Shown: piece by piece, positions 11,149 to 35,111 of the stretch | How the letters are laid out: every line of letters begins with the position of its first letter | Numbering within the stretch: position 1 is the stretch's first letter | Virus record (IMG/VR): IMGVR_UViG_3300047469_000094 | Origin: a virus | Lineage: Duplodnaviria > Heunggongvirae > Uroviricota > Caudoviricetes | Strand: one strand, 5' to 3' | DNA length: 64,000 nucleotides | Notes under the pieces: generated by a model | Told to the model about the DNA's origin: nothing | The model's input: only the letters and a program-made list of their open reading frames with translations | The model's database searches: none | Program-made: the position numbers and the translations under genes

Positions 11149-11262
11149 CTACTTGAAGAATGCTTTCGCAAGCACTCCGCAGATGAACCCGAAGGCCATA
11201 ATGCCGAATATGATTACAAATATCACACCAAGTATTGACGCGAGAAATCCTAGAATTCCCAT
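11149..11262 (-). CDS. small membrane peptide (37 aa, not in ORF track)
   Basis: MGILGFLASILGVIFVIIFGIMAFGFICGVLAKAFFK; GAGG RBS lies inside the upstream ORF end. Confidence 0.6.
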   Translation of the reverse strand: MGILGFLASILGVIFVIIFGIMAFGFICGVLAKAFFK

Positions 11263-11558: not shown

Positions 11559-11641
11559 TGCTAAATCCCTGTAATTCAGTAAGTAGTAGGTAAGCGGTAT
11601 CCTTCTCTACTACTCTTATACCCGAATCCAGTGGTTGGTAT

Positions 11642-16665: not shown

Positions 16666-17640
16666 GTGTCTACCCCATCTTTCACGTCTTCCTCATCGAA
16701 CTTTACTTCGGTTCGCCTCTATACTGAGCTGGACCCGTACTACTACACCATTGATAACCGCCCGCTTCAGGACCTAAGCACCAACTCCAGTAGCCTAGCA
16801 AACGCAGCAGATGCCGGTCGTCGCGGTGTCCTAATCGAAGCCCTGAGAGCCTCTGCGTTGCAATCCGGTATGTACGGTTCCGGGCAGTCTCTGGTAGGAC
16901 TTCGTGCATCCGTTGCTTCTGCTTCCACGGTATCAGTAGCTCCAGGTGCAATGATGCTGCCAGGAGCAATCTCGGTTGCGGATGCCACTCCTATCCTTCG
17001 GGTAGCGGGTAGCCACACCACTGTAACCTTGAACACTCCTGCCCCCGTAACTTTGGGCCAAGAGATGACCTACATCGTCCAGGCTGGATTCACTGAGTTC
17101 ACTGGCACTACCTCGTATCCTAACTTCGATTCCGCCAACCCACTGTTGCAGTCAAACTTGCTGAACGGCTACCTGACTGTAAACGTTGTAGCAGGCGCTC
17201 AGGCGAACACCGGCACTTCGATAGCGCCTTCGGTAACTCCAGGTTTCTACCCACTCTATACCGTAGTTAGCGTATCTGGGTCTTCACCGGTTATTACCAT
17301 TAACGCTTCGTCTCCTACCCGTCTGATCCAGACTGTAGCTGAAGAACAATGGGTCACCCCTACTCTGGTCAACTCCTGGGTGAACGTCTCCAGCTACCAA
17401 GCAGTTCAGTACAAGCGGGTGGGCAGCAAAGTTATCATCCGAGGTGCGTTGCAGAGCGGTTCCGCAGGTTCCGTAGCTTTTACCCTACCAGCGGGATTCC
17501 GACCTCTAACCAATAACGCCTTCGGGGCCTCTAACGGGGGTAGCGGAAGCGTAACGGTAACGGTGTTTGCATCGGGTAACGTAATTATCAGTGCAAGCTC
17601 CCCTGCCTACCTGGGAATCATCGAGTTCTACACCGACTGA
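16666..17640 (+). CDS. putative tail fibre / receptor-binding protein
   Basis: C-terminal W..PTL.NSW....QYKRVG..V..RG......FTLPAGFRP domain typical of tail fibre tips; late motif at 16619. Confidence 0.7.
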   Translation: MSTPSFTSSSSNFTSVRLYTELDPYYYTIDNRPLQDLSTNSSSLANAADAGRRGVLIEALRASALQSGMYGSGQSLVGLRASVASASTVSVAPGAMMLPGAISVADATPILRVAGSHTTVTLNTPAPVTLGQEMTYIVQAGFTEFTGTTSYPNFDSANPLLQSNLLNGYLTVNVVAGAQANTGTSIAPSVTPGFYPLYTVVSVSGSSPVITINASSPTRLIQTVAEEQWVTPTLVNSWVNVSSYQAVQYKRVGSKVIIRGALQSGSAGSVAFTLPAGFRPLTNNAFGASNGGSGSVTVTVFASGNVIISASSPAYLGIIEFYTD

Positions 17641-19238: not shown

Positions 19239-19334
19239 AATTGTTATAGCTCCAAAGGTCGGCGGTTAAGTATTCTCTTGCACTACTCTTATACCAGGGA
19301 CGTATATGTGCTATTGAGTACTTGTCTTCTTTCC

Positions 19335-19342
19335 GTTAAAAT
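19335..19342 (+). promoter_or_regulatory. Late-class promoter motif, exemplar (N-[TCG]-TAAAAT)
   Basis: Copies at 16619, 19335, 31131, 35788, 46441, 49443, 54008, 54174, 59182; GTTAAACT variants at 42063 and 55295; all but 54008 upstream of plus-strand genes. Confidence 0.75.
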
Positions 19343-19370: not shown

Positions 19371-21137
19371 ATGAGCACTGATTACCTAAATCCCTCCTTC
19401 GGCAATACTATGAATGCCGGGCAGACTCCTAGCCCGTGGTTCACTGTTGCCAACCAGTTCCTGCCAAGGAACCTACATGACGTCATTCGTTGGTCGAAGT
19501 ACATCACCACTCAGTCACCGACTACCACTGAGGTGATTCGGAAGCTGTCGTCCTATCCGATCACTGATTTCGTCGTGGACTCGAAAGAAAAGACTACTAC
19601 TGAGAAGTACAAAGAAGTATTCAAGTGCCTGCGTCTCCGCCAGAACCTCCAAGAAATTGGGTTTGGCTACCATACGCTGGGTAACGTCTTCATCTCGATC
19701 TACTACCCCATCACTCGCGTACTTCGGTGTACTGCGTGTGAGACTGACTACCCGATGCGTAAGGCTGGGTTTGTTAAGTTCAAGAAATACGAGTTCCTAG
19801 GTGTTTGTCCTCATTGCAACCACAATGGTGTCTTCCAACGTATCGATCGTAAGTCTATGGACATCCGCGATATGAACATCATCCAGTGGGATGCTCTGAA
19901 CATCATCGTGAACAACAATCCGATAACTGGTCGCTCTGAGTACTACTACTCTATCCCGAATGAGATTCGTCGGAAGATTGCTGATGGCGATATGCTTTTC
20001 CTTTCGTCTACCCCGTGGTCGTTCATCGAGGCAGTAAAGTCGAACCAAGATTACAAATTCGATGATGATGGTATCTATCACCTGAAGGCCCCGTCACTGA
20101 CTACCCACAGTCTTAATGGTATTGCAGTACCTCCGCTGATCTCCTTGTTCGGTCTTGTGTTCTATCAACAGACTCTGCGCAAGGCTAACGAATCGATTGC
20201 TACCGAGTTCCTGCACCCATTGCGTGTCGTGTACCCTCTTCCAAACGGTTCCGCAGATCCGTCGGTGAGCATGAGTATGCGTAACTTCCGTGGGAATATG
20301 GAGGCGGCACTTAAGAAGCACAAGCGTGACGGTGCTCACATCGTGGTTGCTCCTGGCCCTATCGGTTACGGGACTATTACTGGCGAAGGCCGTGCTCTTC
20401 TTGTAAACCAGGAGATCCAGCAGGCTGAAGAAACGATGCTTCTGAGTCTTGGCGTTTCTCGTGAGTTGCTTAGCGGTACTACTAACTGGACTTCGTCTAC
20501 TGTCGGTCTTCGACTGATGGAAAACAGCATGGATGCCTACGTGGCTCAACTGAACTCTCTCCTAGAGTGGATGTTCGGTAAGATGTCTCAGTATCTGAGT
20601 CTAGAGCCTGCGAAGGTTACCTTGAAAGAATTCAAGCTGATCGATGACACTACTATGCAGCAGATGTTTGCCAACCTGGCTACTCAGGGCAAGATGTCGA
20701 TGCGTAAGTTCTTCGATAGTATCGGTGAGGACTATGACGAGGAGATGGCTAACCAGAAGAAAGAAGCTATCGACCGTGCAGTTATGGCTGTCGAAATTCA
20801 GATCGAAACTGGTGAGGCTACTACGACTGCTGCTCGTAAAATCTCTACTCGTAATGCCGAGACTTCTTCGGAGCAAGCTGAGTTCATGCGTACCTGTATT
20901 ACTCAGGCGATGGAATTCATGGCCATGGACCCTCAAGAAGTTGAGCTTCAGTTGAGCATGATGGATGTAGAAGATCCTGCAATGTCCATCAAGATCCGTG
21001 CTTTGCTTGAGGGTATTCAGGTCGCAGGTGCAAACGCTATTGCTGCACAGCAAGGTCAGGCTCCTGGACAAGAGGGCGGAAGCCCAGGTCAGCAGGCCTC
21101 TGGAAAATCCGAAAAGCCACAGGGTGAAGACCAATGA
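19371..21137 (+). CDS. putative portal protein with Zn-ribbon insertion
   Basis: Size, helical content and position in the late cluster; CTAC...CPHC insert; Gln/Gly-rich tail. Confidence 0.6.
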   Translation: MSTDYLNPSFGNTMNAGQTPSPWFTVANQFLPRNLHDVIRWSKYITTQSPTTTEVIRKLSSYPITDFVVDSKEKTTTEKYKEVFKCLRLRQNLQEIGFGYHTLGNVFISIYYPITRVLRCTACETDYPMRKAGFVKFKKYEFLGVCPHCNHNGVFQRIDRKSMDIRDMNIIQWDALNIIVNNNPITGRSEYYYSIPNEIRRKIADGDMLFLSSTPWSFIEAVKSNQDYKFDDDGIYHLKAPSLTTHSLNGIAVPPLISLFGLVFYQQTLRKANESIATEFLHPLRVVYPLPNGSADPSVSMSMRNFRGNMEAALKKHKRDGAHIVVAPGPIGYGTITGEGRALLVNQEIQQAEETMLLSLGVSRELLSGTTNWTSSTVGLRLMENSMDAYVAQLNSLLEWMFGKMSQYLSLEPAKVTLKEFKLIDDTTMQQMFANLATQGKMSMRKFFDSIGEDYDEEMANQKKEAIDRAVMAVEIQIETGEATTTAARKISTRNAETSSEQAEFMRTCITQAMEFMAMDPQEVELQLSMMDVEDPAMSIKIRALLEGIQVAGANAIAAQQGQAPGQEGGSPGQQASGKSEKPQGEDQ

Positions 21138-21409
21138 ACAACAAAGATATGAACAAACAGCAACAGGCGCACGGGACGGCTTCTATGCCGTCCATGCTCC
21201 CAGATCGTCAGTTCGAAGATGAGATCGCGGCTAGTTACACAGTTAAGTACTTCCGGGCGGACCTAGATGAACCTAGTGAAACCTTGGAACTGCAACGTAT
21301 CGAAACCGTAGGGCTTCGTGGTGATGATATTGTGCTTACTGACCGTCAGACCTATTCTTTCGAAGGACGCTTCTTCGTAGTTCTTCGCTACTATCAGAAA
21401 CGAATCTAA
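21134..21409 (+). CDS. hypothetical protein
   Basis: 91 aa coupled between the portal and RNAP genes. Confidence 0.7.
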   Translation: MNNKDMNKQQQAHGTASMPSMLPDRQFEDEIAASYTVKYFRADLDEPSETLELQRIETVGLRGDDIVLTDRQTYSFEGRFFVVLRYYQKRI

Positions 21410-21411
21410 CC

Positions 21412-24400
21412 ATGCCGAATACCCCATACCCGATTTTCTCTGATCCACGGTCGATCAATGATAAGGCAGACGCAGCTCTCGTAAACGGGCTGACGTCTCA
21501 CTTCCCTATCGAGAACAAGCACTATCAGCTTCACCTGAGTGATGTGCATGTGGACCGTAAGGAGTTCGACCAGAAGGATGAGAAGGATGCAATCCTCCGT
21601 TCCAAATCGTTGACGTACCCTATCAAGGGTACTTTGACCATGATCCATAAGGCCACTGGTGCAGTAGTCGATAAGGAGAAGGACTTCCCTTTGATGGACT
21701 CGTTCTTCCTTACTGGGAAGCACACGATGCTCTACAAGGGTAACAACTACATTGTTGCCAACCAGCTCCAACTGAGTCCTGGTGTGTTTACTCGCACCAA
21801 GGAAAACGGAGAACTGGAGGCTCACTTCAACACTCAGAAAGGCCGTAGCTTCTCGCTGACTCTTGACCCGGAGCACGAGTTGATTTATCTGAATGCTGAT
21901 AAGTCCACCTCTCGTGTACTGGTAGCCCCGATCTTCACGCAGATCTTTCACATTTCGCCTAAGGAGATTCTTCAGTACCTCCCGGAAGAATTGTGGGAGC
22001 GAAACGTTGCGGCTGCAAAAGGACAAGAACAGAAAGCAATCAAGACTTTGTATGGTCAACTGACTTCCAAGTTCAAACAGGATAAAACCCTGTCGTACGA
22101 AGACATGATCGTTGCCTTGCAGGAAGCGTTTGCGGGCTCCACTCTGTCTGCGAAATCTACTGAGATCACTCTTGGTAAACCTTTTTCGAACATCACCCAT
22201 GAGACCCTGTTGCGTGCTATGGCCAACATGGTTGCAGTGCGTCGTGGTGATCGTGAAGAAGATAACCGGGATAGCCTTCAGTTCAAGCGTGTACAGAACC
22301 TTCCAGACTTCCTGGCTCGTCGTTTTGAAACTGGCCGTGAGCACGAAAGTGTTACTAAGGTTAAGAACAAACTTGGTTTCAACCTTGAACGTGTAGACCA
22401 CGCTGATCCGAAGATCCGTAAGGTGATTCCTGCCAAGCCGTTCAACAAGATCTACCAAGACTACATCCTGAAATCCACCCTGGTATCCACCCCGGAGGAA
22501 ACCAATGCTATCGAATCGATTGAGAACGTGGGCAAGGTTACGGTCCTTGGCGCTCAAGAAGGCGGTATTTCCAATATTCGAGCCGTTCCTAAATCTGCTC
22601 GAAATATCGATGCGTCTCATACTGGGATTCTTGACCCTAGTCGTACTCCTGAGTCTGATCACGCTGGTGTTGATCTACGCTTTACAATTTCTGCTCATCG
22701 CGACGATTACGGAACTCTTTACTCGACGGTCGTAGATAACAAGGGTGGGAAGCACACTCTCTCTGTTCACGATTTGATGACTTCGGTCGTTGGCTTCCCA
22801 AACCAAGAGGGCAAGGCCCGAGTTCAGGCCCAAGACCATGGCGTACTTTCTGAAGTTGATCGGAGCAAGGTACAGTATTGGTTTGCAAGTGGTAACAGCC
22901 TGTACACCGTAACTACTAACCTTGTACCGTTCCTGAACAGTAACCACCCGGGTCGTCTGACCATGGCTGGTAAGGCTATTCCTCAGGCGCTCTCTTTGGT
23001 TAATCGTGAAGAGCCTTTGGTTCAGACTGCTACCGGTAGCGGCACTTCCTTTGTGAAGTCTATCGCTAACGTGTTCAGTACGAAATCCCCGGTAGACGGC
23101 ACTATTCGTAAGATCACCCCTACTGAAGTTCACATTGAGAGCAATACCGGAACAGTCCACAAAGTGAACCTTGTTAAGAACCTTCCGTTCAACATGAAAG
23201 GCTTCCTGGATGACGAGGCTCCTCACGTTGCTGTTGGTGAGGCCGTGAAGGCAGGTCAGATCGTCGCTGAGAACAACTACACTAAGAATGGGGTCCTTGC
23301 CCTAGGTAGGAACCTGGACGTCGCCTACATACCTTACAAGGGCTTCAACCACGAAGACGGATTGGTAATCTCCCAGACTGCCTCTGATAGCTTGTCTAGC
23401 CATCACGCATACAAAGTCGATTACAACATCATGGAGTACTCCGTTCCTCGTAAATCATTGCTTAAACGTTACTTCCCAGGTAAGTTCACAGCAGAACAAC
23501 TGAGCCACTTGGATGAACAAGGCGTTGCAACCGTGGGCTCTATTTTGAAACACGGAGACCCGGTATATGCGGTACTTGAAAAAAGAGAGCCGACGGCTGA
23601 AGACCGTATGCTTGGACGTCTACATAAGACACTGGTTAACCCTTACCGTGTTAACGCAGATCTGTGGGGCTACGATGACCCTGCTGAGGTAGTTGACCGT
23701 CACGTCGATGCCAAAGAGATTCGTGTAATTCTTCGTGCAGTTAAGCAACTGGAAATCGGTGACAAGCTGACGGGTATGCATGGTAACAAAGGTATCGTGT
23801 CTCTTATCCTGCCGGATGAGAAAATGCCATACAACAAAGAAACCGGTAAGCCATACGATCTTTTGCTCAACCCTGCCTCTGTAACCAGCCGGGTAAACCT
23901 GGGTCAGTTGATGGAAGTAGCTGCGGCGAAGATTGCTCGTAAGAAAGGTTCTCCGTACCTAGTTCACAACTTCTCGAAGAACTCCAACGTTCAAGAGTTG
24001 ACTGACGAACTGAAAGCGCATGGTTTGAGCGACACTGATGAAGTAGTAGATCCTGAGAATGGCAAGACTTATCCAAAAGTCCTGGCCGGTCCTCAGTACA
24101 TGATGAAACTCTACAAGACTACTGACCAGAACTTGTCGGCTCGTAACGTGGGTGGCTACGACAACGTACTACAACCTACCAAGGGTGGTCACGAAGGTTC
24201 GAAGTCTGTTGGTTACATGGAGTTCCTCGGTCTGCTGGGCTCAGGTGCAAACCACAACTTGCAAGAGATCGGTACTTCCAAGTCTCAAGAAAACTCGGAG
24301 TACTGGACAAAGTTTCTGCGTGGTCAGCCTCTGCCTAAGCCGGACACTACCTTTGCTACTAAGAAGTTCATCGACTACCTTCATGGTTCTGGCGTCAAGG

Positions 24401-24768
24401 TAAACGTAGATAGCGAACACATCACTGCCTCTCCTCTCATGGACAAAGACATACTTGAGATGAGCAACGGTGAGATCAAGAACGCTGACTTCGTTGCTGC
24501 CAAGAACATGGAGCCGGAAGAAGGTGGTCTGTTCGACATGAGTATCACTGGTGGTATTCGTGGTCAGAAGTGGGGACACTACAAGCTTGCAGAGCCTGTC
24601 GTAAACCCGGTCTTCGAGAACGCGGTTAAGCACCTTACAGGTCTAACATCTACTGAATTCGACAAGCTCGCTTCCGGTGAACTCGGTCTGAAAAAGGTAG
24701 GGGACAAAGAGTTCCATCTTGTTACCCATGGTGACGACAGTAAGGTGATTAAGAAGGTGACGATGTGA
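21412..24768 (+). CDS. multi-subunit RNA polymerase beta subunit fused to the beta' N-terminal segment
   Basis: TPESDHAG, GDKLTGMHGNKG, LLNPASVTSRVNLGQ, YMMKL; C-terminal EGGLFD..ITG...WGHYKLAEPV matches the beta' N-terminus. Confidence 0.9.
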   Translation: MPNTPYPIFSDPRSINDKADAALVNGLTSHFPIENKHYQLHLSDVHVDRKEFDQKDEKDAILRSKSLTYPIKGTLTMIHKATGAVVDKEKDFPLMDSFFLTGKHTMLYKGNNYIVANQLQLSPGVFTRTKENGELEAHFNTQKGRSFSLTLDPEHELIYLNADKSTSRVLVAPIFTQIFHISPKEILQYLPEELWERNVAAAKGQEQKAIKTLYGQLTSKFKQDKTLSYEDMIVALQEAFAGSTLSAKSTEITLGKPFSNITHETLLRAMANMVAVRRGDREEDNRDSLQFKRVQNLPDFLARRFETGREHESVTKVKNKLGFNLERVDHADPKIRKVIPAKPFNKIYQDYILKSTLVSTPEETNAIESIENVGKVTVLGAQEGGISNIRAVPKSARNIDASHTGILDPSRTPESDHAGVDLRFTISAHRDDYGTLYSTVVDNKGGKHTLSVHDLMTSVVGFPNQEGKARVQAQDHGVLSEVDRSKVQYWFASGNSLYTVTTNLVPFLNSNHPGRLTMAGKAIPQALSLVNREEPLVQTATGSGTSFVKSIANVFSTKSPVDGTIRKITPTEVHIESNTGTVHKVNLVKNLPFNMKGFLDDEAPHVAVGEAVKAGQIVAENNYTKNGVLALGRNLDVAYIPYKGFNHEDGLVISQTASDSLSSHHAYKVDYNIMEYSVPRKSLLKRYFPGKFTAEQLSHLDEQGVATVGSILKHGDPVYAVLEKREPTAEDRMLGRLHKTLVNPYRVNADLWGYDDPAEVVDRHVDAKEIRVILRAVKQLEIGDKLTGMHGNKGIVSLILPDEKMPYNKETGKPYDLLLNPASVTSRVNLGQLMEVAAAKIARKKGSPYLVHNFSKNSNVQELTDELKAHGLSDTDEVVDPENGKTYPKVLAGPQYMMKLYKTTDQNLSARNVGGYDNVLQPTKGGHEGSKSVGYMEFLGLLGSGANHNLQEIGTSKSQENSEYWTKFLRGQPLPKPDTTFATKKFIDYLHGSGVKVNVDSEHITASPLMDKDILEMSNGEIKNADFVAAKNMEPEEGGLFDMSITGGIRGQKWGHYKLAEPVVNPVFENAVKHLTGLTSTEFDKLASGELGLKKVGDKEFHLVTHGDDSKVIKKVTM

Positions 24769-25916
24769 CAGAACCAGTACTGATGGGGGGAGCGGCCTTT
24801 GAGGCCCTCCTTGGTGCAATCAACATTGACCAGAGTTTGAAAGACAACTCACATGAAGCAGTGCATGCTACTTCGGTAGCTAAAAGAGACAAGGCCATTA
24901 AGAAGATCAAGTATCTTGCGGGCCTTAAGAAAATGGGGGTTACCCCGGACCAAGCCTACGTTGTTCGCAACGTAGCAGTGGTTCCTCCAGTTACTCGTCC
25001 TATGATGGTTCAGGGCGGAGGCCGTCTTGAATACTCTGACGTCAACCAGCTCTACCGTGACCACATCGTTTCCAACGAGACCTTCAAAGGTTTGAAAGGC
25101 GTTCTGCCAGACGAATCTACTATGCTAGTCAATGCTCGGAAGGAGATGTACAACGGTCTGAAAGCAGTTGTTGGTTTGGGTGACCCTATCTCCCCTAACT
25201 CTCGTGGCCGTGATCTAAAAGGGTTGCTGGTTCAGATTGCTGGTAAAGGTTCGCCAAAGGCGGGTCTCTTCCACAGCAAGATTTTGAGTAAGAAACAGGA
25301 CTTCTCTGGTCGAGGCACTATCTATGCTGAACCACGTCTTGGCTTCAACGAGATGGCGATTCCGAAAGATACGCTTTGGTCCATGTACAAATTTCACGTC
25401 ATTCGAGATATGACCCGTCAAGGTCACTCGTACATGAACGCTGAGAAGGCGTACAGTGAGCGAAACGATTCGGCTACTTCTTCATTCGGTAAGATCATCA
25501 AAGAAGTTCCTATCATTGCCAACCGTAACCCTACTCTGATGAAGTCCAACATCTCGGCGTTCTTCCCAGTGCCGGTTGAAGGTAACTCCATTGGTGTAAA
25601 CCCTCTGCACCTACCAATGTTCGCAGGGGACTACGACGGTGACGCATTGTCCTTGTTCTTGCCTATGGGCCCTGCTGCGGTTAAAGAAGCACGAGATAAG
25701 CTCATGCCTTCGAAGCAGATCTACGACGCCCGTATGGGTTACGGGGAATCTCTGATTGCACCTGGCCACGAAGCTATCCTTGGTTCTGTTCACTTGACTG
25801 AAGCGGATATGGACAAAAAGCCCCAGCACTTTGAAAGCGAAGAGCACGTCCTTGCAGCACTCAAGGCTGGTACGGTGGACGAGAATACACCGATCACCAT
25901 CTCACCTAAAAAATGA
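24765..25916 (+). CDS. RNA polymerase beta' catalytic (middle) fragment
   Basis: VVPPVTRP, KKQDFSGRGTI, NRNPTL, FAGDYDGDA (DxDGD active site). Confidence 0.92.
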   Translation: MTEPVLMGGAAFEALLGAINIDQSLKDNSHEAVHATSVAKRDKAIKKIKYLAGLKKMGVTPDQAYVVRNVAVVPPVTRPMMVQGGGRLEYSDVNQLYRDHIVSNETFKGLKGVLPDESTMLVNARKEMYNGLKAVVGLGDPISPNSRGRDLKGLLVQIAGKGSPKAGLFHSKILSKKQDFSGRGTIYAEPRLGFNEMAIPKDTLWSMYKFHVIRDMTRQGHSYMNAEKAYSERNDSATSSFGKIIKEVPIIANRNPTLMKSNISAFFPVPVEGNSIGVNPLHLPMFAGDYDGDALSLFLPMGPAAVKEARDKLMPSKQIYDARMGYGESLIAPGHEAILGSVHLTEADMDKKPQHFESEEHVLAALKAGTVDENTPITISPKK

Positions 25917-25957
25917 GGAAGCTAAAAAGCCCTGACAGAAGTCGGGGCTTTTCTTTG

Positions 25958-26413
25958 TTACGTCTCAGGGTTACTGAGTAGCTCGAAGAAGTATTCAAGT
26001 TTACCGGTTTCGGTCAAGTACACCATGAGGGGATCAGCATCTTTTCCGTAATTTTCTTTGTACCCGGATTCCAGGTCTTCCTTGAACAACAGGTACTCAT
26101 TACGAGTGGCTACCAGATCGTCGTCGAGTTTTGCACAGAGATCTTCATCCCACTCCATGACGTCACACAGCTCGCCTGCATCCTGCAAGTCCATATTCAG
26201 CTCTTGCAGCCCGTGAGCAACTTTGGAAGTAATCGAAGTTAACGTTTTTACGGTACTCAAGATTTCCTTGAGGAACACCTCAGGGTTTTTAACTTCAGCG
26301 TCCAGTTCGGCACTCAGGGATTTACCCATGTTCGCCATTGCAGAACGGTTTGCGTTCAGTTCCATGAAGAATGTACGCAGGATGTTTTGTACTTCTTGGC
26401 TATACTTGTTCAT
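25958..26413 (-). CDS. helical hypothetical protein, paralogue family member 1
   Basis: Own promoter (26470) and terminator; DPLMV motif shared with 29248-29697. Confidence 0.75.
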   Translation of the reverse strand: MNKYSQEVQNILRTFFMELNANRSAMANMGKSLSAELDAEVKNPEVFLKEILSTVKTLTSITSKVAHGLQELNMDLQDAGELCDVMEWDEDLCAKLDDDLVATRNEYLLFKEDLESGYKENYGKDADPLMVYLTETGKLEYFFELLSNPET

Positions 26414-26562
26414 GTCAAAGGTCTCTTCTATTAGTTATGATTGAGAAAGTATATTCTTTCTGTACTTTACTTATACCGATTCTGATGTATTGAAATTGAA
26501 ACTTACTGAGCGTGTTGATAGGCTAAAAAACCCTGACAGAAGTCGGGGCTTTTCTTTGTTAC

Positions 26563-27156
26563 TTAGTGCTTAGGGGTATCTTGCGACGCTGCCAGGTCCC
26601 AGCCCTTATTGAAATCGTCGGCAAGCTTTGGGCAGGCTTTTGCTACGTTTTCTTTTGTCCATACTCGTGCAAGACTTTCCTTGTCACTTTCAGACGGTGC
26701 AGCGGACTCGACAGCTTTAGTGATTGCATCGGTGAACTCACCGATCAACCCCTGCTCTTCAAGTTTTTCCATGAGGATAGTGCGGGCACGATCGCCGTAC
26801 ATCTCCACCATTGGTTGGGAAAGTTCCGAACCAAACTGTTCATTTTCTTCGAAGATAGCAACCAGTTCGTGATCCACGTATTCACTGCGGTTAACAGACC
26901 CGTTAACTACGTTGGGTACCATTAATAGTTCTTCTGGTGAAGACCCTGAGTTAGCCAGAGCACTTTCCATATCAATGCTGTGTTTCATGATGCGGGCAGT
27001 CAATTCCGCAGAGCAGCGGATTAACTCCTTCATATCCGGTGTTTCTTTGGCCAACTCAACTTCGGTGAGACGCTGAGCTGCGACAATTTCTGGACGGAAC
27101 TCCAGGTTTTTGGCCATTGCTTGTTTCAGTACGTTTTGCAGATTGGTATTAAACAT
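26563..27156 (-). CDS. helical hypothetical protein, paralogue family member 2
   Basis: ELAKETPD motif; terminator nearly identical to that at 25921. Confidence 0.8.
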   Translation of the reverse strand: MFNTNLQNVLKQAMAKNLEFRPEIVAAQRLTEVELAKETPDMKELIRCSAELTARIMKHSIDMESALANSGSSPEELLMVPNVVNGSVNRSEYVDHELVAIFEENEQFGSELSQPMVEMYGDRARTILMEKLEEQGLIGEFTDAITKAVESAAPSESDKESLARVWTKENVAKACPKLADDFNKGWDLAASQDTPKH

Positions 27157-27273
27157 GATTAAGGTCTCTTCTATTGGGATTGTGAGAAAGTATATTCTTC
27201 CTCTACTTTACTTATATCAGCATTTGTATCTTGGAATTGAAACTGGGGACCTGAGATCAGATCCCCGTTTACA

Positions 27274-27831
27274 TCAGATGATGTCGCCTTTCGCCAAGCC
27301 TTCTACTACCGGTGCCATTTCAGTTGCGAGTGAATCGCCATCTTCTGAGATCTTTCGTGCCATTTCCTCGAAGCCCGGAATGTCCTTGACGCTATCGATA
27401 AAGGCCTCAAGCGAGTGAGTTTTCGCAAGCGCCTTTTCCATGGCCTTTGGACCGTACGTTCTGGTGATCTCGTTATTGAGGCCATCCGTGAACGCAAGGT
27501 GGGAACGGACCAACTCTGCGAGCTCGGGTTCGAGAGCAGAGATGTGTTCCTCTGATTTGTTTTCCAGACATACCGTAAAGATGTAGTCCAGTTGTGGCTG
27601 TAGTTCCTCAACAGACATGCTTTCGAGAAGCAGGTTGATGAGTTCCGATGACAAACGAACAGTACGATCACCACTTCGGAGAATACCTTCAGTTACCTCC
27701 GTCAGATTTGGCGTTGTCTTTGCCAGTTCTTGCATGGTGATTTCATGGAGTCGTTTGAGAAGTGGTTGTTCTCCAGCAAGTACTTGAAGTACTTTCTTGG
27801 ATTGCTCTTGGACAAGGATAGATGGAGTCAT
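27274..27831 (-). CDS. helical hypothetical protein, paralogue family member 3
   Basis: ELAKTTPN motif; promoter at 27879. Confidence 0.8.
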   Translation of the reverse strand: MTPSILVQEQSKKVLQVLAGEQPLLKRLHEITMQELAKTTPNLTEVTEGILRSGDRTVRLSSELINLLLESMSVEELQPQLDYIFTVCLENKSEEHISALEPELAELVRSHLAFTDGLNNEITRTYGPKAMEKALAKTHSLEAFIDSVKDIPGFEEMARKISEDGDSLATEMAPVVEGLAKGDII

Positions 27832-28005
27832 TTCAAAGGTCTCGTGTTAGTAGAAGATGATATTCCTCTTACACTATTCTTATACCTAAACGAGCTTCCC
27901 GTATGTAATCTACGGTGTCGGTCGGACTCCATGACTAGCTGCTTACAGTACTTATACCAAAACTACGTCCTTGACTTTCCATAGGGTAGGGTTAACCTCT
28001 GACTC

Positions 28006-29307
28006 ATGGATCATTCTGAATTTGAAACAAAGTCAATTCTGAGACATGGCCACCGATACGACTATTCAAAGTCGGAAGTTACTACCAGCAAATCTAAGGT
28101 AGTGATTGGTTGTCCTCAGCACGGAGATTTCCTACAGGCACCCGACCACCATATGCGTGGGAGAGGGTGTCCTTCCTGTGGGCGTAGTAACCAGGGCAGA
28201 GTTTCTGGAATAACTCAGGAGGAGTTCATTCGAAGAGCAACCGAAGCTCATGAAGATTTTTACGATTACTCTAAAACGGTGTACGTTTCTTCTAGGAGTA
28301 AGATAGACATCCTCTGCCCTATACACGGTGAGTTCAGTACCTTGGCCGTAAAACACATACAGGAGAAACGTGGCTGCCCTTCTTGCGGTAGAGTGAAGAA
28401 CAGGTATGCCCAAAGCGTTATGTACCAAGACTTCTTTGATTCTGCTGTAGAACGTCACGGTTCCTCCTACGGATATGCGGAGGTATCTCTTCGATTCATG
28501 TCAGATGACATTGACGTAGTGTGCCCTACTCACGGAGCATTTACTGTCGTGGCATCTGATCATGTGCATGGACGTGGTTGCCCAAAATGCAGACCAAACG
28601 GATCGTCCCCGGAGAACGAGTTAGCAGACTTCATTCACGGATTGGGATTCGATATTGTCAGAAACTCTCGTAAGATAATACCGCCTTTAGAGCTAGATGT
28701 AGCCCTTCCTGCTGAGCGGGTTGCCTTCGAGTTCAATGGTATCTTTTGGCACTCTGAGCAGGTGGGAAAGGCTGCGGAGTATCACCAGAACAAAACCATG
28801 AAGGCACGACAGGCCGGGTATCGTTTGTTCCATGTCTATGAGTCTGACTGGGACCTGAACAAAGAATACACGATGGCCAAGATTCGAAAGATACTTTCCC
28901 CCGCCACCTGTCCTGACCTAAGTCCATCGTACCCTCTGGAGGAATACTCCGGTGATTACCATTTGATTCTTCGTGGTAAGCCTATAGCAGGGTTCCGGGT
29001 TAAAGAAGGGGTAGCCATAGACTGTTGGAGTGAATACGGGATAAAGCCTATTCACCGATTGATGGTTACATCGGGGGTCATGCGGATGAAGACGAGCCTA
29101 GACTGGCCGGAGTTCACCGTAGGTGATTTCTCTGCTGCGGGGTTCTTGAAGCACATGAATGTGAACCCTGGTCGTCACTACTTTGATCGCAAAACCCTAC
29201 GCAGACTAAAAGAAAAGCCCCGACAGTGTCAGGGCCTTGAGTATCTCTCAGTGGTAGACTCTGGGTCCACCATCTGGGAAATTCGGATTGAACAGGATGT
29301 ACCCTAG
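28006..29307 (+). CDS. homing-endonuclease-like protein (three CPxHG Zn repeats plus a Vsr/PD-(D/E)xK domain)
   Basis: Repeats YDYSK..(Y)...K..I.CP.HG.F....H..GRGCP.C; ELDVALP..RVAFEFNGIFWH. Confidence 0.8.
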   Translation: MDHSEFETKSILRHGHRYDYSKSEVTTSKSKVVIGCPQHGDFLQAPDHHMRGRGCPSCGRSNQGRVSGITQEEFIRRATEAHEDFYDYSKTVYVSSRSKIDILCPIHGEFSTLAVKHIQEKRGCPSCGRVKNRYAQSVMYQDFFDSAVERHGSSYGYAEVSLRFMSDDIDVVCPTHGAFTVVASDHVHGRGCPKCRPNGSSPENELADFIHGLGFDIVRNSRKIIPPLELDVALPAERVAFEFNGIFWHSEQVGKAAEYHQNKTMKARQAGYRLFHVYESDWDLNKEYTMAKIRKILSPATCPDLSPSYPLEEYSGDYHLILRGKPIAGFRVKEGVAIDCWSEYGIKPIHRLMVTSGVMRMKTSLDWPEFTVGDFSAAGFLKHMNVNPGRHYFDRKTLRRLKEKPRQCQGLEYLSVVDSGSTIWEIRIEQDVP

Positions 29308-29697
29308 GACAATGCTGATAGGGTTTCTTTTATTCAGTCCGATTTCGATATCCACAAACTCAAGCAGTAGTGCGTTCTTCGTCACCACCATCAGAGGGTC
29401 TTCCGGAGAAAGGTCGTAGGACTCTCCGAGATCAACAAGGTTACTCAGGGAGAATGACGCCGCATTTCGGAGATCGTGGATTTGATCCCAAAGTTGCTCT
29501 ACCCAGACGGTACACTCCGAGATGTCTTCTGGGTACATACGAACGCCCTCTGCATGAGCAGACAGATCTCCTCGCATGTTCTCTACGACATCCTCCATAC
29601 AGCGTTGAAGTGCTTCTCCGTATTTCCCAGCAGGCATTGCAACTTTCAGCATGGCGTGTACTCCCTTATATGATTCCATACATCTTATACCAATCAC
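29248..29697 (-). CDS. helical hypothetical protein, possible paralogue family member 4
   Basis: DPLMV motif; promoter at 29684, so the real start is probably the internal Met near 29652. Confidence 0.65.
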   Translation of the reverse strand: MIGIRCMESYKGVHAMLKVAMPAGKYGEALQRCMEDVVENMRGDLSAHAEGVRMYPEDISECTVWVEQLWDQIHDLRNAASFSLSNLVDLGESYDLSPEDPLMVVTKNALLLEFVDIEIGLNKRNPISIVLGYILFNPNFPDGGPRVYH

Positions 29698-29739
29698 GCT
29701 CAGCTAAAAAGAGAGGGGTTGGCCCTCCTCTCTTAGTTA

Positions 29740-30000
29740 TTACTTAGCCGCAGGAGTTTCCGGAGCTGCACCGGTTGCTGCCTGAACGGTTTCAGTAATC
29801 TTTGTGACGGCTGCGTCCAGCTTTGCCTTTGCAGCTTCTTCGCCTTTCTTTGCGCCGCGCTTGGTGCCGACTACGAAGCCGATGCCAGTGCCAATCGCAA
29901 CGAATGCGGTAGCGATGCCGATAGCGATGTATTTACCTACACCGGACTCCTCGACAGGAGTTTCAGTGTTCATTACGTCAGTGCCCATTGCTTCGTTCAT
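29740..30000 (-). CDS. single-pass membrane protein
   Basis: YIAIGIATAFVAIGTGIGFVVG hydrophobic segment followed by basic residues. Confidence 0.75.
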   Translation of the reverse strand: MNEAMGTDVMNTETPVEESGVGKYIAIGIATAFVAIGTGIGFVVGTKRGAKKGEEAAKAKLDAAVTKITETVQAATGAAPETPAAK

Positions 30001-30042
30001 GATGTTACCCTTGTTGAAATTTAGTTTTAGTGGTTGGTTGAG

Positions 30043-30279
30043 TTAGTTGCGGGTACCGCGTTGATTGTGAGCTCGACTGCTCCGTTTGAGCCTGGCAAGT
30101 TCTTCCTCTTTCCGCTCTTTCTCTTTACGAGAGTTGCTGAATGAGGCCTTTGCGTATCCTGCCAGAGCACCTAGTCCGACTAGTGCCCCTGCCATCAAGA
30201 CGTATACCGCACCTTCTCCGGCACCCATGGGAGTGCTGGACTCCAAGTGTTCAAGTGGGGCTCTCATGCATCCTCCCAT
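30043..30279 (-). CDS. single-pass membrane protein
   Basis: VYVLMAGALVGLGALAGY segment. Confidence 0.65.
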   Translation of the reverse strand: MGGCMRAPLEHLESSTPMGAGEGAVYVLMAGALVGLGALAGYAKASFSNSRKEKERKEEELARLKRSSRAHNQRGTRN

Positions 30280-30321
30280 GAGTTGTTAAGTTGTAGGGCC
30301 TCAGTATCAAGGCCCTGGTTA

Positions 30322-30495
30322 TTACGAAGCGTTCGGTTCGGTTTTCGGTGTTTTGAATTTACCAACGAGGATGCCGACGCCGGAACCAATGGCAAGAACT
30401 GCCAACCCAACGAGGAATGCTGCTGCTGCGTAGTTCACTACCGCCTCAGAACGTGTTTCCTGAGGGTATGAATCCAAACCCATTATCTCGGCCAT
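30322..30495 (-). CDS. single-pass membrane protein (57 aa, not in ORF track)
   Basis: Hand translation MAEIMGLDSYPQETRSEAVVNYAAAAFLVGLAVLAIGSGVGILVGKFKTPKTEPNAS; promoter at 30546. Confidence 0.7.
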   Translation of the reverse strand: MAEIMGLDSYPQETRSEAVVNYAAAAFLVGLAVLAIGSGVGILVGKFKTPKTEPNAS

Positions 30496-30568
30496 CGTCT
30501 CACCTGCTATTTATTGTTGAAGAGATATATTCCTTCTACACTATCCTTATACCTGAACCGCTACCTTG

Positions 30569-31033
30569 TTATTGAATTCCGACGAACTCACCAACTTCAA
30601 ACAGTGAAGATTTGCCGTTGATTACTACTTTTCGTCGGCAAATGAACTTAACGTTTTCCATTTCAGACCAGTCCTTTTCAGTAATGGAATCCGTCTTCAC
30701 GACGAGGTGGGTTTCCGGAATCAAGTCACCCAACTTGACTTCCGGTTTATACGCCTTCTTTACATAGAAGGTTATTGGGTTTTCCAGGTTCTCCTGTACG
30801 ATACTTTCGCCGTTAGGCATGGTGACTGCCTTCTTGGCCAAGAGCTCCTTCGCAACGTTGCTGAGTTCTTCAGCAAAGAAGTCGCCGATGTCTTGTTGTT
30901 TCTTCCGTGGGAAGAGTGCTGCCTTGAGGTATCCGATACCCGTGGCTGCAAATACGAGTGCCATGCCTGTCATGAACACTGCTGCACCGTAGTTGCCTGC
31001 TGCTTCTGAATTAGTTTCGTGACCGTAGCGCAT
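30569..31033 (-). CDS. N-terminally anchored membrane protein
   Basis: ETNSEAAGNYGAAVFMTGMALVFAATGIGYL, similar to 30322-30495; promoter at 31095. Confidence 0.75.
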   Translation of the reverse strand: MRYGHETNSEAAGNYGAAVFMTGMALVFAATGIGYLKAALFPRKKQQDIGDFFAEELSNVAKELLAKKAVTMPNGESIVQENLENPITFYVKKAYKPEVKLGDLIPETHLVVKTDSITEKDWSEMENVKFICRRKVVINGKSSLFEVGEFVGIQ

Positions 31034-31173
31034 TCTGATTCTCCAGTGATGTGGGGAAGCATTCGTGAATAGGAGGTACTCCTTCTACACAGTACTTATA
31101 CCTCAATGGCATCCTCGTAATTGAACCTCAGTTAAAATCCCAGATACCTAACCTTCACCAGGCCAATACATTC

Positions 31174-32994
31174 ATGGCAGACCAAAAATACACAACTCCC
31201 GGCTCAGTAATGATCAAGCACATGCTTCCTGTAGGTGCTCGGGAGAAGTACGATCTACACCGCGTCCTAGATAAGGGTGGGGTGCAAGGACTTATTCAGC
31301 TACTCATCAAGAACGAAGATTCTGACTTCGAGGTCATCAACGATCTCGCTCGACTGTTCTTTGGCAAGGCCACTGAGATCGGGGCTTCGACCCCCCTCTC
31401 TGACTACATCAACGATTCCAGCGAGCGAGCTGCTTTGCTGGGGGAGTTCGAGCATAAGGTTGCAGAGATTCTAAAAAGCAAGGTTTCGACTCAGGAGAAG
31501 TCGAATGCCCTGTCTACTCTTGCCGCAGATATGTCGGGCAAAATCAGTAAGCAGAACATCAACTACTTGGCCAGCCGAGGCTCTACCGCAGCGAAGATGG
31601 CTGCTACGGGTGCTCGTGGTAACCCGTCTCAGTTGGCTTGGGGTACATCCTCTCCACTCATGGCGGCAGACGTACGGGGTATGCCGGTACCAATCGCGGT
31701 AATGCACTCCTTTGCTGAGGGACTTACTCCTGGCGAGTACTTGGCGATGTCTTACGCCGGTCGAGCCTCTACCGTAGCCGCACAGCTATCTACGTCTCTA
31801 CCCGGTGCCCTGTTTAAGAAGCTGACTCCGAACGTCTACCACGAGGTCGTGACGGTCCCTGACTGCCATACCGTAAACGGTGTTATGACTCCGTCAACTG
31901 ATCGGAAGGCTTTGATCGGTCGATACGAAGCAGGGACCAACAAGTTCATTGATGAAGCGTATCAACGTGAACTTGAGCAGAGTCATAAACAGGTGAAAGT
32001 TCGTAACACCATGACTTGCGAAGCGAAGAAAGGCGTATGCCAGAAATGCTACGGTCAAGCTTCAGACGGTCATCTCGTTACCATCGGTACTAACGTAGGT
32101 GTTATCGCATCTCAATCTGTGTCCGAACGTCTCACCCAAGCGATGCTGGGTACTAAGCACTCCGGTGGTGTTGCTGGTAAAAAGCGAAATGCTTATGAAG
32201 AGGCAAGTAACCTCCTGAACAACCCTGCGGATAACTTCCAGGATGAGGCTACGATTTCCAAGTTGAATGGTACTGTATCTGAGATTCGTCAGACAGCACT
32301 GAAAGACCATGAGATATACGTCAATGGCGTACCTCACTTCGTAAGCCGAGAGCAGGATTTGACGGTTAAGAAAGGTCAGGAAATGAAGGCCGGTGATCAG
32401 ATGTCTACTGGTACAGTCAACCCTCGTAAGCTCGTATCCTTGAAAGGGGTTGGTGCAGGTCGTCTTTACATGGCTAACAAACTCCGTGATATCTACGGCT
32501 CAGGCCTTGATACTCGTCACTTCGATTTGATTGCTCGTAACCTCATCAAATACGTCAAGGTAAACGATCCGGGTGAAACCGGGTTCCTGCCGGGACAAGA
32601 GATCGACGTTAACCAGATCCAAGATGAGCTGGCGAAGAACAGTGAAGCAGTTCCAATCCACAGCGCAGTTGGACGTACTCTGTCACACGGCGTTCTGGAA
32701 GAAGTACCGGGTACCTACCTGACTCAGAACCACGTTGATAGCTTGGCAATGCGTGGGATCAGCTCTATCCATGCAACGACTTCAGGTTTGAAAGTGACTC
32801 CGTTGGTCCCAGGTCTTCAGTCGGCTAAGCTTCTTGACCCTAACTGGATCTCTAAACTGGCCTTCAACAAGATCCGCTCTACCATCCAGGAATCGGCTGC
32901 TATTGGATCTTCTTCGAAAATCCATGATACTGATCCTATCACTCCGTATGTAATGGGCCGAGACTTTGGCCAAGGCAATCCTGGGGAGTATTAA
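31174..32994 (+). CDS. RNA polymerase beta' C-terminal fragment
   Basis: GARGNPSQL, SFAEGL, bridge helix YAGRASTV, CEAKKGVCQKCYG Zn site, trigger loop SERLTQAMLGTKHSGG. Confidence 0.9.
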   Translation: MADQKYTTPGSVMIKHMLPVGAREKYDLHRVLDKGGVQGLIQLLIKNEDSDFEVINDLARLFFGKATEIGASTPLSDYINDSSERAALLGEFEHKVAEILKSKVSTQEKSNALSTLAADMSGKISKQNINYLASRGSTAAKMAATGARGNPSQLAWGTSSPLMAADVRGMPVPIAVMHSFAEGLTPGEYLAMSYAGRASTVAAQLSTSLPGALFKKLTPNVYHEVVTVPDCHTVNGVMTPSTDRKALIGRYEAGTNKFIDEAYQRELEQSHKQVKVRNTMTCEAKKGVCQKCYGQASDGHLVTIGTNVGVIASQSVSERLTQAMLGTKHSGGVAGKKRNAYEEASNLLNNPADNFQDEATISKLNGTVSEIRQTALKDHEIYVNGVPHFVSREQDLTVKKGQEMKAGDQMSTGTVNPRKLVSLKGVGAGRLYMANKLRDIYGSGLDTRHFDLIARNLIKYVKVNDPGETGFLPGQEIDVNQIQDELAKNSEAVPIHSAVGRTLSHGVLEEVPGTYLTQNHVDSLAMRGISSIHATTSGLKVTPLVPGLQSAKLLDPNWISKLAFNKIRSTIQESAAIGSSSKIHDTDPITPYVMGRDFGQGNPGEY

Positions 32995-33782
32995 TGGCTA
33001 GTGCAGCAGCAGGTCCTACTTCTTCAAGTGCGTTCCGCCAAGCCCTCCAATCTGAAATGGATATTCAGCTTGGGGGTAACTTCTCTATTCTCGGTTCATA
33101 CCAAGATGTAGATAAGATCATCGTAGGTGTTATCGCTACTGAATCGGGTGCAGGACTAAACTGGGGCAACGTTGACGTTGCTCACAGAATGGTTCCTGCG
33201 ACGTCAGGCTTCGGCTTATCGTTTGAACAACACCAAGTAACTCAGAACGCACGTAAAAGCTTGGCGGTCAACCAGTCAAATCTGAGTCAGGGTCGATTAG
33301 CTCAATCCTTGCTTGGAACGATGGGTGCCTATCTTATCCGGGGATTACAGCTAGGACCTAAAGGGTTCGGGCACGTACAGAACAACTACAAGTCAGTTGC
33401 TGAGGCCATGGATCTTCTGGTAAATCCTGGGGAGTCCATTACGGCTAGGTTTACTCAAGATGCGGATGGACTTCGGAGGGGTTTATTTGCAGGTCTTTGT
33501 ATTCTAGAGACCAACTACAAAATATTCCTGAAGAAGTATCCAGGTAACAAAACTGCTGCAATTGAGGCTACTATCCGATCACACCTCGGAGACCCAAACT
33601 CAGTTGACGCCGTCACAGGCATTTCCTCCGGCGACTACTTGTCCCGAGTAATGAACAGTGCAAACTCCTATGCAGGAGGTTCATCTAAATACATGGGTGT
33701 ATCTAATAACTCGGTTAAGGTTGCACAAAGTACTGGGTACCGCCCAGGTACCTCACCGGGCTGCGGAGTGACTCCATCCTAA
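32994..33782 (+). CDS. putative lytic transglycosylase (lysozyme-like fold)
   Basis: VIATESG catalytic-Glu motif, GLQ, LVNP, G...L, RSHLG arrangement resembles SLT domains. Confidence 0.45.
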   Translation: MASAAAGPTSSSAFRQALQSEMDIQLGGNFSILGSYQDVDKIIVGVIATESGAGLNWGNVDVAHRMVPATSGFGLSFEQHQVTQNARKSLAVNQSNLSQGRLAQSLLGTMGAYLIRGLQLGPKGFGHVQNNYKSVAEAMDLLVNPGESITARFTQDADGLRRGLFAGLCILETNYKIFLKKYPGNKTAAIEATIRSHLGDPNSVDAVTGISSGDYLSRVMNSANSYAGGSSKYMGVSNNSVKVAQSTGYRPGTSPGCGVTPS

Positions 33783-33812: not shown

Positions 33813-35111
33813 TTACACAACCAAATGAGGAATGAACCGTTCGTTCATTGTCTCAATGATTTCGTTATCAAACTCTCGGAAGCACAGAGTACCTGCACGA
33901 GCGTAGAGGTTGTTTCGAGAACAGTGTGGGGCCATCCAAACACCTGCGATGAAGTTCTTGCCTTGACGTACGCTACCAGCAGGGCAGAGTTCTTGATATA
34001 CCCGTTCGGTGTCACCGTAGTACCCTTCACTAGATACGATTACTTCACCATCCGCACCGAGAAATTCGATGTTGGAGGATAGGCGACCAAGAGAAGGTTT
34101 GGACACTTGTGGATTGCCGAGAAGGGGTTCTTTGCTCATATACGTCTTGAGTAAGGGGAGGTCCTTCCAGGCATGAGCCCAACGTGATTCTTCAGACATC
34201 ATGCATGTCATTAAAGCCCATACACCTTTGTTCGACATGAACCATCTCCAAGACGGTTCCATGATTACAACTGAGTCTGCCCATTGCTTCCAGTTAAGGA
34301 ATGCAGCGGGGAACGCCGTCACCATTTCTTCCCACGGGGAAAGAACGAACATGCCATCGAGAACGATATCACTGTATATGAAAGGTTTACTACCGCCTGC
34401 ATGATCGTAATCTAGCTCTTTGATATCAACCATGAAAGCAGTTACGTGCTGACCCAAGAGCTCGGTAAGGATTTCGCAAGTAGCCATATCCTCGATGTAG
34501 TCGGAGTTAAAAACAATTGCAAACTTATCGCAGAGGCCTAGTCGATGCTGACGAAGAGACTCGGAGATACGTTCGTAGTACTCGTTGAATTGAGACTCAC
34601 CCGTAATATCGATCTGACGAACGAAGTCACTCTCTAAAGCAGTGGACTCGAATAGCATCACGGGAGTATCGCCGTTGAACTCATAGACTCCAGTAACTCG
34701 GTCTGTCTTCGGATCAATGGCCATATCGAATCTACCGTACAAAGCTTGGCTCAGCATGTTCTTTTGACGGAACGTGTGCTGAGCATAGTCGATAAAGGCC
34801 AGACCTTCGTTTGAGCGGAGCATTTCACAGTCGTAGAACTGAGGAATCAGAACTGGGTTTTCAAACAAGTAATCGACTGCGTTGATCATCGCACCGTAGA
34901 CGTCTTCAGCAACGGTCGCAATATCATCACAAGCTATGCCACTGATGGTGTAGAAAGGCATTGCCTCCTTGTTAGCCAGTGGGAACGAAAACAGATCTTT
35001 CACGTCATTTCGTAATTCTTGAGTAGAGTTATAAAACTCGCTCAGATATGGAAGATGTGTAGGGAGGACGTTTTCGATGTCGAAGTTAATTTTGTATCTT
35101 TCGAAATTCAT
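33813..35111 (-). CDS. glutathionylspermidine synthase-like ATP-grasp protein (YgiC/YjfC-like)
   Basis: LYGRFD, YEFNGDTPVMLFES, FVLSPWE, MEPSW, KPSLGRLSSNI, VYQE. Confidence 0.88.
   Translation of the reverse strand: MNFERYKINFDIENVLPTHLPYLSEFYNSTQELRNDVKDLFSFPLANKEAMPFYTISGIACDDIATVAEDVYGAMINAVDYLFENPVLIPQFYDCEMLRSNEGLAFIDYAQHTFRQKNMLSQALYGRFDMAIDPKTDRVTGVYEFNGDTPVMLFESTALESDFVRQIDITGESQFNEYYERISESLRQHRLGLCDKFAIVFNSDYIEDMATCEILTELLGQHVTAFMVDIKELDYDHAGGSKPFIYSDIVLDGMFVLSPWEEMVTAFPAAFLNWKQWADSVVIMEPSWRWFMSNKGVWALMTCMMSEESRWAHAWKDLPLLKTYMSKEPLLGNPQVSKPSLGRLSSNIEFLGADGEVIVSSEGYYGDTERVYQELCPAGSVRQGKNFIAGVWMAPHCSRNNLYARAGTLCFREFDNEIIETMNERFIPHLVV

Follow-up and report, generated by a model that had tools for sequence, protein, structure and literature searches.

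Which kind of RNA polymerase is encoded between positions 21,412 and 32,994 of the IMG/VR virus record IMGVR_UViG_3300047469_000094, and are the unusual cuts in its genes real? The DNA analysed here, hereafter the window, is a 64,000-nucleotide stretch from a tailed phage (Caudoviricetes). A first reading of its letters (the original prediction) had proposed a bacterial-like multi-subunit enzyme with non-canonical splits, belonging to a lineage other than that of the phiKZ-like phages. Our data indicate that the phage very probably has an RNA polymerase of its own, of the bacterial type, whose catalytic core is encoded at this locus and made as three polypeptides in an inherited layout, with phage sigma factors as proposed partners and packaging into the virion as its proposed fate.

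Identity of the three polymerase genes

The first gene (21412..24768, + strand) encodes a protein of 1118 amino acids in which beta (residues ~1-990) is fused to the N-terminus of beta' (residues 991-1118). Its beta part is complete at residues ~23-990 and matches the Pfam family Rpb2_6 with an E-value of 1e-53; against the beta chains of the PDB, residues 23-986 align with cyanobacterial beta 33-1043 (E-value 2e-67), and the beta double-psi barrel is present together with its flanking domains. The second gene (24765..25916, +) starts with GTG and encodes the middle subunit of beta' (beta'M, 383 amino acids), corresponding to residues 174-554 of Escherichia coli beta'. Pfam finds Rpb1_1 and Rpb1_2 (E-value 5e-12 for the latter) in this protein, and in the PDB search its matches are residues 179-550 of beta', numbered as in E. 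coli, and residues 188-550 of cyanobacterial gamma. It carries the clamp helices on which sigma docks, as judged from the PDB alignment and also seen when a fragment from a relative was modelled with AlphaFold2, and the catalytic Mg-binding loop, which reads AGDYDGD instead of NADFDGD and occupies residues 287-293, as the original prediction of a separate 383-residue gene had it. The third gene (31174..32994, +) starts 5.26 kb downstream of beta'M, in agreement with the predicted distance of about 5 kb, and encodes the C-terminal subunit (beta'C, 606 amino acids). This protein matches Rpb1_5 (E-value 8e-19) and covers beta' ~555-1366, including the bridge helix and trigger loop, without the SI3 insert.

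The distribution of cysteines follows the same division: the 1118- and 383-residue proteins have none in their combined 1501 residues, and the 606-residue protein has only four, C231, C282, C289 and C292, which correspond to the second zinc site of beta' and three of which fall within the stretch that the PDB search paired with bacterial beta'. On TIGR02386, the full-length beta' profile of NCBIfam, the three pieces are colinear, with residues 1011-1050 of the 1118-residue protein on profile positions 9-48, residues 5-380 of the 383-residue protein on 160-534 and residues 5-489 of the 606-residue protein on 548-1071. Together, the three pieces make up beta followed by beta', and only the zinc-binding domain and lineage-specific inserts are missing.

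The beta'-derived tail and the missing zinc-binding domain

The tail of the 1118-residue protein (24382..24765, +) had been predicted to be a beta' N-terminus that lacks its cysteine zinc finger. We examined whether this segment is beta'-derived by a family hidden Markov model (HMM), an alignment and a structural model of a relative, and all three assign it to the N-terminal portion of the beta' clamp with the zinc finger deleted. In single-sequence comparisons, residues 991-1118 match Rpb1_1 positions 7-50 in Pfam (E-value 0.0017) and the tail segment alone matches TIGR02386 positions 9-48 (E-value 0.0018). The 142-residue tail alone gives a weak signal against the PDB (E-value ~0.6), and 17 of its 18 matches are beta' N-termini, hit at the expected residues on either side of the zinc-binding domain. 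The family HMM, built from this segment of 93 relatives and the window's own, matches E. coli RpoC at residues 22-64 and 150-200 with an E-value of 7e-4 (database size 177,635), while RpoB remains unmatched. When aligned by MAFFT with relatives of the fully fused form and with beta' sequences of three bacteria, the tail corresponds to E. coli beta' 6-173. The window lacks residues ~65-95, which form the four-cysteine zinc-binding domain, and so does every viral sequence aligned. An AlphaFold2 model of the beta'N+beta'M fragment of a relative (P0145), calculated from a 59-sequence alignment, reached a mean predicted local distance difference test score of 89.4 and superposes on E. coli beta' 17-551, Thermus beta' 5-830 and Synechococcus gamma 8-558 of 617 (Z ~24, ~460 residues aligned).

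The alignment also positions both cuts. The first falls between E. coli beta' residues 173 and 174 and coincides with a large non-conserved insert of Thermus beta', which is a surface site; residue 6 of the 383-residue protein pairs with Thermus residue 455 when the full chain is the reference and with residue 164 of a deletion construct. The second cut lies between residues 554 and 555, after the catalytic double-psi barrel.

A phage family built on a beta-beta' fusion

Among isolates, Salmonella phage Arash is the nearest (54% identity), followed by the Vibrio phages D69, D181 and D148 (52%); the phage collection contains nothing else above 30% identity. At the nucleotide level the polymerase region had no match in this collection, and the relatives appear there at the protein level only. 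The exact sequence of the 383-residue protein is absent from the contig index. Identity to bacterial beta and beta' amounts to 24-29%. In a search of 1.8 billion representatives, the best 150 matches of the 383-residue protein all scored above 186 bits, compared with ~140 bits for bacterial beta' in the PDB.

We surveyed the gene layout in two sets by mapping the four pieces of the window polymerase, namely on the best 150 representatives at 50% identity plus nine reference sequences (159 rows) and on 81 IMG/VR loci, which were found by an alignment query; scanning IMG/VR with the single proteins P0148 and P0150 had returned nothing. The most frequent layout joins beta, beta'N and beta'M in one chain and leaves the C-terminal part separate (86 of 159 rows; 50 of 81 loci). 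All four pieces form one chain of ~2000-2600 amino acids in 30 rows and 22 loci, and the window type with its free-standing middle part accounts for seven rows (five representatives, the window and its close relative L010) and nine loci. These nine loci all rank among the ten that match the window best, with identities of 51-86%. The remaining rows are four with fused middle and C-terminal parts, "canonical" fragments at contig edges and partial or undecided cases. A "canonical" beta/beta' boundary within the family was considered for P0145 and P0222 and rejected, because their contigs, of 1.6 kb, begin at the gene or close to it, which makes both of them fragments. Isolated candidates for "split" representatives beyond the window's clade are P0136, on a 1.5-kb contig, and P0220.

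In a FastTree phylogeny of the middle part, the viral sequences form one clade apart from bacterial beta' (support 100), in which the fully fused forms occupy the basal branches and an inner clade with a separate C-terminal gene has a support of 100. An IQ-TREE analysis of the window's neighbourhood joins the ten window-type rows in one clade (84/78), whose sister group is the fused Arash/D69 clade (100/98), both within a clade supported by 96/98; fused sequences are the next outgroups. The window polymerase is a member of this Arash-like family according to the joining of beta to the beta' N-terminus, the 554/555 cut, which is common to most of the family, and its placement in the viral clade. 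In its ground plan the family fuses beta to beta', and the 173/174 cut is secondary: it arose once, from a fused ancestor, and is confined to the window's clade. The simplest reading of the order of events is one chain, then the 554/555 cut, then the 173/174 cut in the window's lineage. Regarding the original prediction, the non-canonical splits are real, yet the hallmark of the family is the fusion, and the cut between beta'N and beta'M belongs to the window's clade only. Likewise, the lineage is indeed not that of phiKZ and AR9, though it already has cultured members in Arash, D69, D148 and D181 and probably overlaps with the metagenomic mReC group discussed below.

Sigma, alpha and omega

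The original prediction had recognised no alpha, omega or sigma gene in the window. This holds for the window itself, as Pfam found no RNA-polymerase-associated family beyond the three polymerase genes in the 37 window open reading frames (ORFs) scanned (some small ORFs were outside the scan) and a tblastn search with the sigma genes of five relatives gave no match. The window ORF at 16666-17640 was considered as a sigma gene and rejected; it is not the sigma of Arash gp196. The statement does not extend to the family for sigma: in the genomes of Arash, D69 and four IMG/VR relatives, Sigma70_r2 scores above its curated cut-off in five of six, whereas alpha (PF01000) and omega (PF01192) are found in none above cut-off, with 14 of 14 control genomes positive. 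Four of these six genomes are complete or near-complete according to CheckV, and two IMG/VR genomes are of window type and have terminal repeats. In five relatives there is one beta' barrel per genome.

A separate observation concerns the loci L016/L017, which contain a relative of P0148. Here, a sigma-70-type gene with regions 2 and 4 (10937-11971) directly follows a 977-residue fusion of beta'M and beta'C, and no beta gene is present within 8 kb upstream of the fusion.

Mobile elements in and between the polymerase genes

The 5.3-kb spacer between beta'M and beta'C contains a free-standing homing-endonuclease-like gene (28006..29307, +), whose product of 433 amino acids combines DUF723 with a Vsr/MTES_1575-type nuclease and has 12 cysteines. 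In L010, a like-sized ORF of 441 amino acids occupies the same place, a likeness by size and position alone. Other family members carry such elements inside their polymerase genes. Three IMG/VR members have inteins directly after DxDGD (L098:8805-10397, L094:8850-11120 and L103:8760-10360), which are inserts of ~500-740 amino acids with Intein_splicing and LAGLIDADG_3 domains. A LAGLIDADG_2 insert (E-value 3e-28) covers residues ~1065-1526 of P0147 (2522 amino acids), at precisely the point where the zinc-binding domain has been lost, and many members have inserts of ~50-500 residues at recurrent positions of beta. The cuts are plausible neutral leftovers of this traffic of inteins and homing endonucleases, and may be tolerated because they are located in surface loops.

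Besides, an inorganic pyrophosphatase domain (PF18823, E-value 1e-30) is inserted at residues 772-889 in the beta part of P0248 (1787 amino acids). Such an insertion would bring an activity that removes pyrophosphate into the chain of an RNA polymerase.

Transcription unit and proposed packaging into the virion

The first two polymerase genes belong to a transcription unit that begins with the portal protein gene (19371..21137, +), whose product has 44% identity to the Arash portal gp204 along its entire length. A promoter-like site precedes the portal gene at 19314-19342, and a strong terminator-like hairpin with a 12-bp stem and a T run (25925..25952, +) ends the unit after beta'M. Portal and polymerase are separated by an ORF of 91 amino acids (21134..21409, +) without a Pfam match, and ORFs of similar size occupy this place in Arash (gp205), D69 and D181. 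The genes are tightly spaced, with 4-nucleotide overlaps between portal and the 91-residue ORF and between the first two polymerase genes, and a 2-nucleotide gap between the small ORF and beta. Candidate promoters of the TGGTATAAG type have been reported earlier.

Downstream of beta'C, an ORF of 262 amino acids (32994..33782, +) overlaps the stop codon by one nucleotide and has no Pfam match. An ORF of identical length takes this place in L010, and a comparison with the helicase gp217, which occupies the same place in Arash, gave no similarity. We further noted two glutathionylspermidine-synthase-like ATP-grasp proteins near the polymerase genes, at 33813-35111 (-) and 8573-9634 (-), with PF03738 E-values of 7e-39 and 6e-6, respectively.

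For Arash virions, gp206, gp216 and the sigma factor gp10 were detected, and gp206 yielded the most spectra of all virion proteins (PMC10585845). The gene for gp10 lies among structural genes, and the protein had 100% coverage in the virion proteome. Based on the sigma factors of the relatives without alpha or omega, on the Arash virion proteome and on the portal operon, we infer a late-made, packaged and sigma-dependent enzyme. Its three chains, beta with the first ~170 residues of beta', the beta' middle and the beta' C-terminal part, would rely on sigma-70-family factors that the phage encodes elsewhere in its genome and would do without alpha and omega, and the covalent link between beta and beta' may take over the role of the alpha dimer in assembly. 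The enzyme would be made late, from a single operon with the portal gene, packed into the head and, after the example of Arash, injected to transcribe the early genes. A wider scenario, which we put forward tentatively, is that the family's sigma-dependent polymerase without alpha and omega began as a single beta-beta' chain of ~2000 residues that was packed into the head together with sigma and injected, and that multi-gene forms arose later by cuts in surface loops under invasion by inteins and homing endonucleases.

Several points weigh against this interpretation. Packaging is taken from a single proteome, that of a relative at 52-54% identity, and the authors of the Arash study themselves allow for carry-over of abundant enzymes into virion preparations (PMC10585845). 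The head-cargo tag N-x-[YF]-L-E-K-x-A is absent from all three polymerase subunits. One genome of the family (G002) has no Sigma70_r2 match, and the genome-wide search for sigma, alpha and omega covered the genomes of relatives and, for the phage under study, the 64-kb window only; the polymerase may also use the alpha subunit of the host. Bridge helix and trigger loop are divergent, with M932L and R933G (E. coli numbering) according to an inspection of the alignment by eye, so that enzymatic activity of the three-piece polymerase is an assumption. The phage itself is known here from sequence alone. Concerning the layout, the monophyly of the window type is moderately supported (84/78), and the root of the family is set by four bacterial beta' sequences (three references and P0268) and FastTree.

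The alternative with the most merit is that the polymerase stays outside the virion and serves late transcription only, whereas early genes are read by the host polymerase after redirection by phage sigma factors. Phage sigma factors usually act on the host core enzyme (PMC7598289, PMC7824862), which speaks for this possibility, as do the absence of the cargo tag and the contamination that the Arash authors consider. Nevertheless, we regard it as unlikely. There is only one polymerase per genome, and the position of its genes in the portal operon fits late synthesis for packaging. Moreover, the top spectral count of gp206 and the full coverage of a sigma factor encoded among structural genes speak against a non-virion enzyme. 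Packaging of the polymerase remains our preferred reading.

The boundary between the first two genes

A second alternative questions the three-chain layout itself: an assembly error of one base, or else programmed frameshifting, could have divided a true product of 1500 residues, fused as in Arash. The stop codon of the 1118-residue frame and the GTG of the 383-residue frame indeed overlap by 4 nucleotides as ATGTGA in different frames, and a single continuous ORF is present at this place in Arash, D69 and most of the family. On the other side, the GTG is preceded at 7 nucleotides by a Shine-Dalgarno-like AAGGTG, and a slippery heptamer was sought at the junction and not found. The same ATGTGA-type overlap occurs in L010 at 86% protein identity, and the contig of P0124 (54% identity) has the same boundary with an overlap of 8 nucleotides. 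In public data, the boundary is repeated in independent assemblies, as 118 of the 120 90%-identity clusters nearest to the 1118-residue protein are 996-1178 amino acids long and the other two 1501. In the nine window-type IMG/VR loci, the spacing of the first two genes ranges from overlap to 2.9 kb, and in five of them the genes are 1.3-2.9 kb apart. This physical separation shows that two chains work, and an artefact at this boundary is accordingly very improbable.

Finally, a recent capture of host rpoB/rpoC or a bacterial contamination of the contig, decaying into pieces, would explain why the motifs are far closer to cellular beta and beta' than those of the phiKZ type, but it can be dismissed in view of the low identity to bacterial subunits, the intact catalytic motifs, the viral clade set apart from bacteria, thousands of relatives on phage contigs and the portal and structural genes that flank the polymerase genes.

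Implications

According to the common view, bacterial RNA polymerase depends on the alpha dimer to bring beta and beta' together, and omega and the zinc-binding domain count as conserved accessories. The large natural family described here has kept sigma, dropped alpha, omega and the zinc finger, and linked beta covalently to beta'. If our interpretation is true, its versions would form a natural series from one to three chains in which the need for alpha, omega and the zinc-binding domain can be tested; the one-, two- and three-chain enzymes provide material for studies of assembly and of a minimal enzyme, with Arash as the cultured entry point. Furthermore, splits of polymerase genes recur at a few permissive loops, and shared "split sites" are consequently weaker proof of common descent, for example where phage enzymes are derived from cyanobacteria. 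For annotation, it should be considered that a "beta" subunit in these phages is beta plus part or most of beta'.

Comparison with known polymerases

Isolates that carry the polymerase of this family are already known, and the new aspects are the fused and split architecture and the three-gene form at the level of a clade. Arash gp206/gp216 (OQ632216; PMC10585845) and the proteins of D69, D148 and D181 belong to the same viral family at 52-54% amino-acid identity and share with the window the gene order portal, small ORF and polymerase as well as the beta-beta' fusion, the missing zinc-binding domain and the 554/555 cut. The C-terminal subunit has 606 amino acids in the window and in Arash and 609 in D69; genomes of the relatives are ~180 kb in size. 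They differ in that Arash and D69 have beta, beta'N and beta'M in one chain of 1525-1527 amino acids, with the C-terminal part separate, whereas the window has the additional 173/174 cut. The published records name gp206 only as "beta", and the fusion is not described there. Unlike the window, D181 and D148 carry a homing-endonuclease insert within the beta part; in D181 (L004, 8974-14488), and also in D148, ~0.9 kb with the endonuclease gene breaks beta, which may be an intron or a true split.

The mReC group comprises metagenomic tailed phages with deep-branching beta and beta' (Weinheimer and Aylward, 2020; PMC7481178). As in the window's family, both subunits are detectable by cellular profiles and form a clade apart from cells (here, relative to four bacterial outgroup sequences). 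In addition, the intein-bearing L098 (178,259 bp) stems from metagenome 3300017987, which is also the source of an mReC contig of 179,738 bp. In contrast to the layouts found here, mReC phages have separate beta and beta' ORFs of ~1000/905 or 1364/1005 amino acids (PMC7481178). They also have T4-type capsid proteins (PF07068), whereas the Arash capsid is a 307-residue protein of the HK97 type that weakly matches PF05065; PF07068 had no match among the window ORFs tested. The Arash-like family probably overlaps with mReC, and the two are likely identical in part. The mReC paper is silent on fusion, cuts, zinc finger and sigma (PMC7481178), a literature search found no paper describing this fused-and-split architecture, and reviews of jumbo-phage polymerases, including one from 2026, do not cover the Arash-like family. 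In this context, we also noted Rhizobium phage RHph_Y65 (L013) and Vibrio phage 1.031.O (L014), which have an unsplit beta' of 1127 and 1263 amino acids with 28-29% identity to the window's middle subunit and represent separate, little-studied polymerase-bearing lineages.

Like the window's family, phages of the phiKZ/AR9 type own a two-barrel polymerase without alpha or omega whose beta' is cut after the barrel, and one form is packed into the virion (PMC7598289). In contrast to the one continuous beta region of 990 residues in the window, their beta is in two or three pieces; they have two enzymes per genome and no sigma-70-type factor, whereas the Arash-like relatives have one enzyme and such a factor. 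They also lack a beta-beta' fusion, and their sequences are far more divergent, while those of the window are nearer to cellular beta and beta'. The predicted distinction from the phiKZ type is borne out.

The same is true for the expected split points of its own. Cyanobacteria and plastids likewise divide beta' into RpoC1 (gamma) and RpoC2, with the break after the catalytic barrel and before the bridge helix, and the cuts in phiKZ and cyanobacterial beta' both follow the catalytic barrel (PMC7598289). Mapped via NCBIfam profiles and PDB chains, however, the cyanobacterial cut falls at about E. coli residues 575-591 (the gamma profile match ends at 574 and RpoC2 begins at 592) and not at 554/555. 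Synechococcus gamma extends ~57 residues past the phage piece in the structural alignment, and the conserved segment TTxGR...P is found at the end of cyanobacterial gamma and, in the phage, at the beginning of the C-terminal subunit. The phiKZ/AR9-type beta'N ends 52-70 residues after DxDGD, compared with 87-90 in the window and Arash (a plain count without alignment). The A'/A'' cut of archaea, which immediately precedes the trigger loop, falls inside the 606-residue protein, where TIGR02389 positions 13-73 match residues 273-334. The 554/555 cut and those of cyanobacteria, of the phiKZ type and of archaea all lie behind the catalytic barrel, but at the residue level they are different events, and neither of the window's two cuts coincides with any of the others.

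A direct junction of the beta C-terminus with the beta' N-terminus is also known from the RpoBC fusions of Helicobacter and Wolbachia (NF007172, NF011417). Unlike the phage enzyme, these are ordinary bacterial polymerases with the zinc-binding domain, alpha and omega, and both profiles score the phage proteins far below their cut-offs. The bacterial and the phage fusions of beta to beta' are independent.

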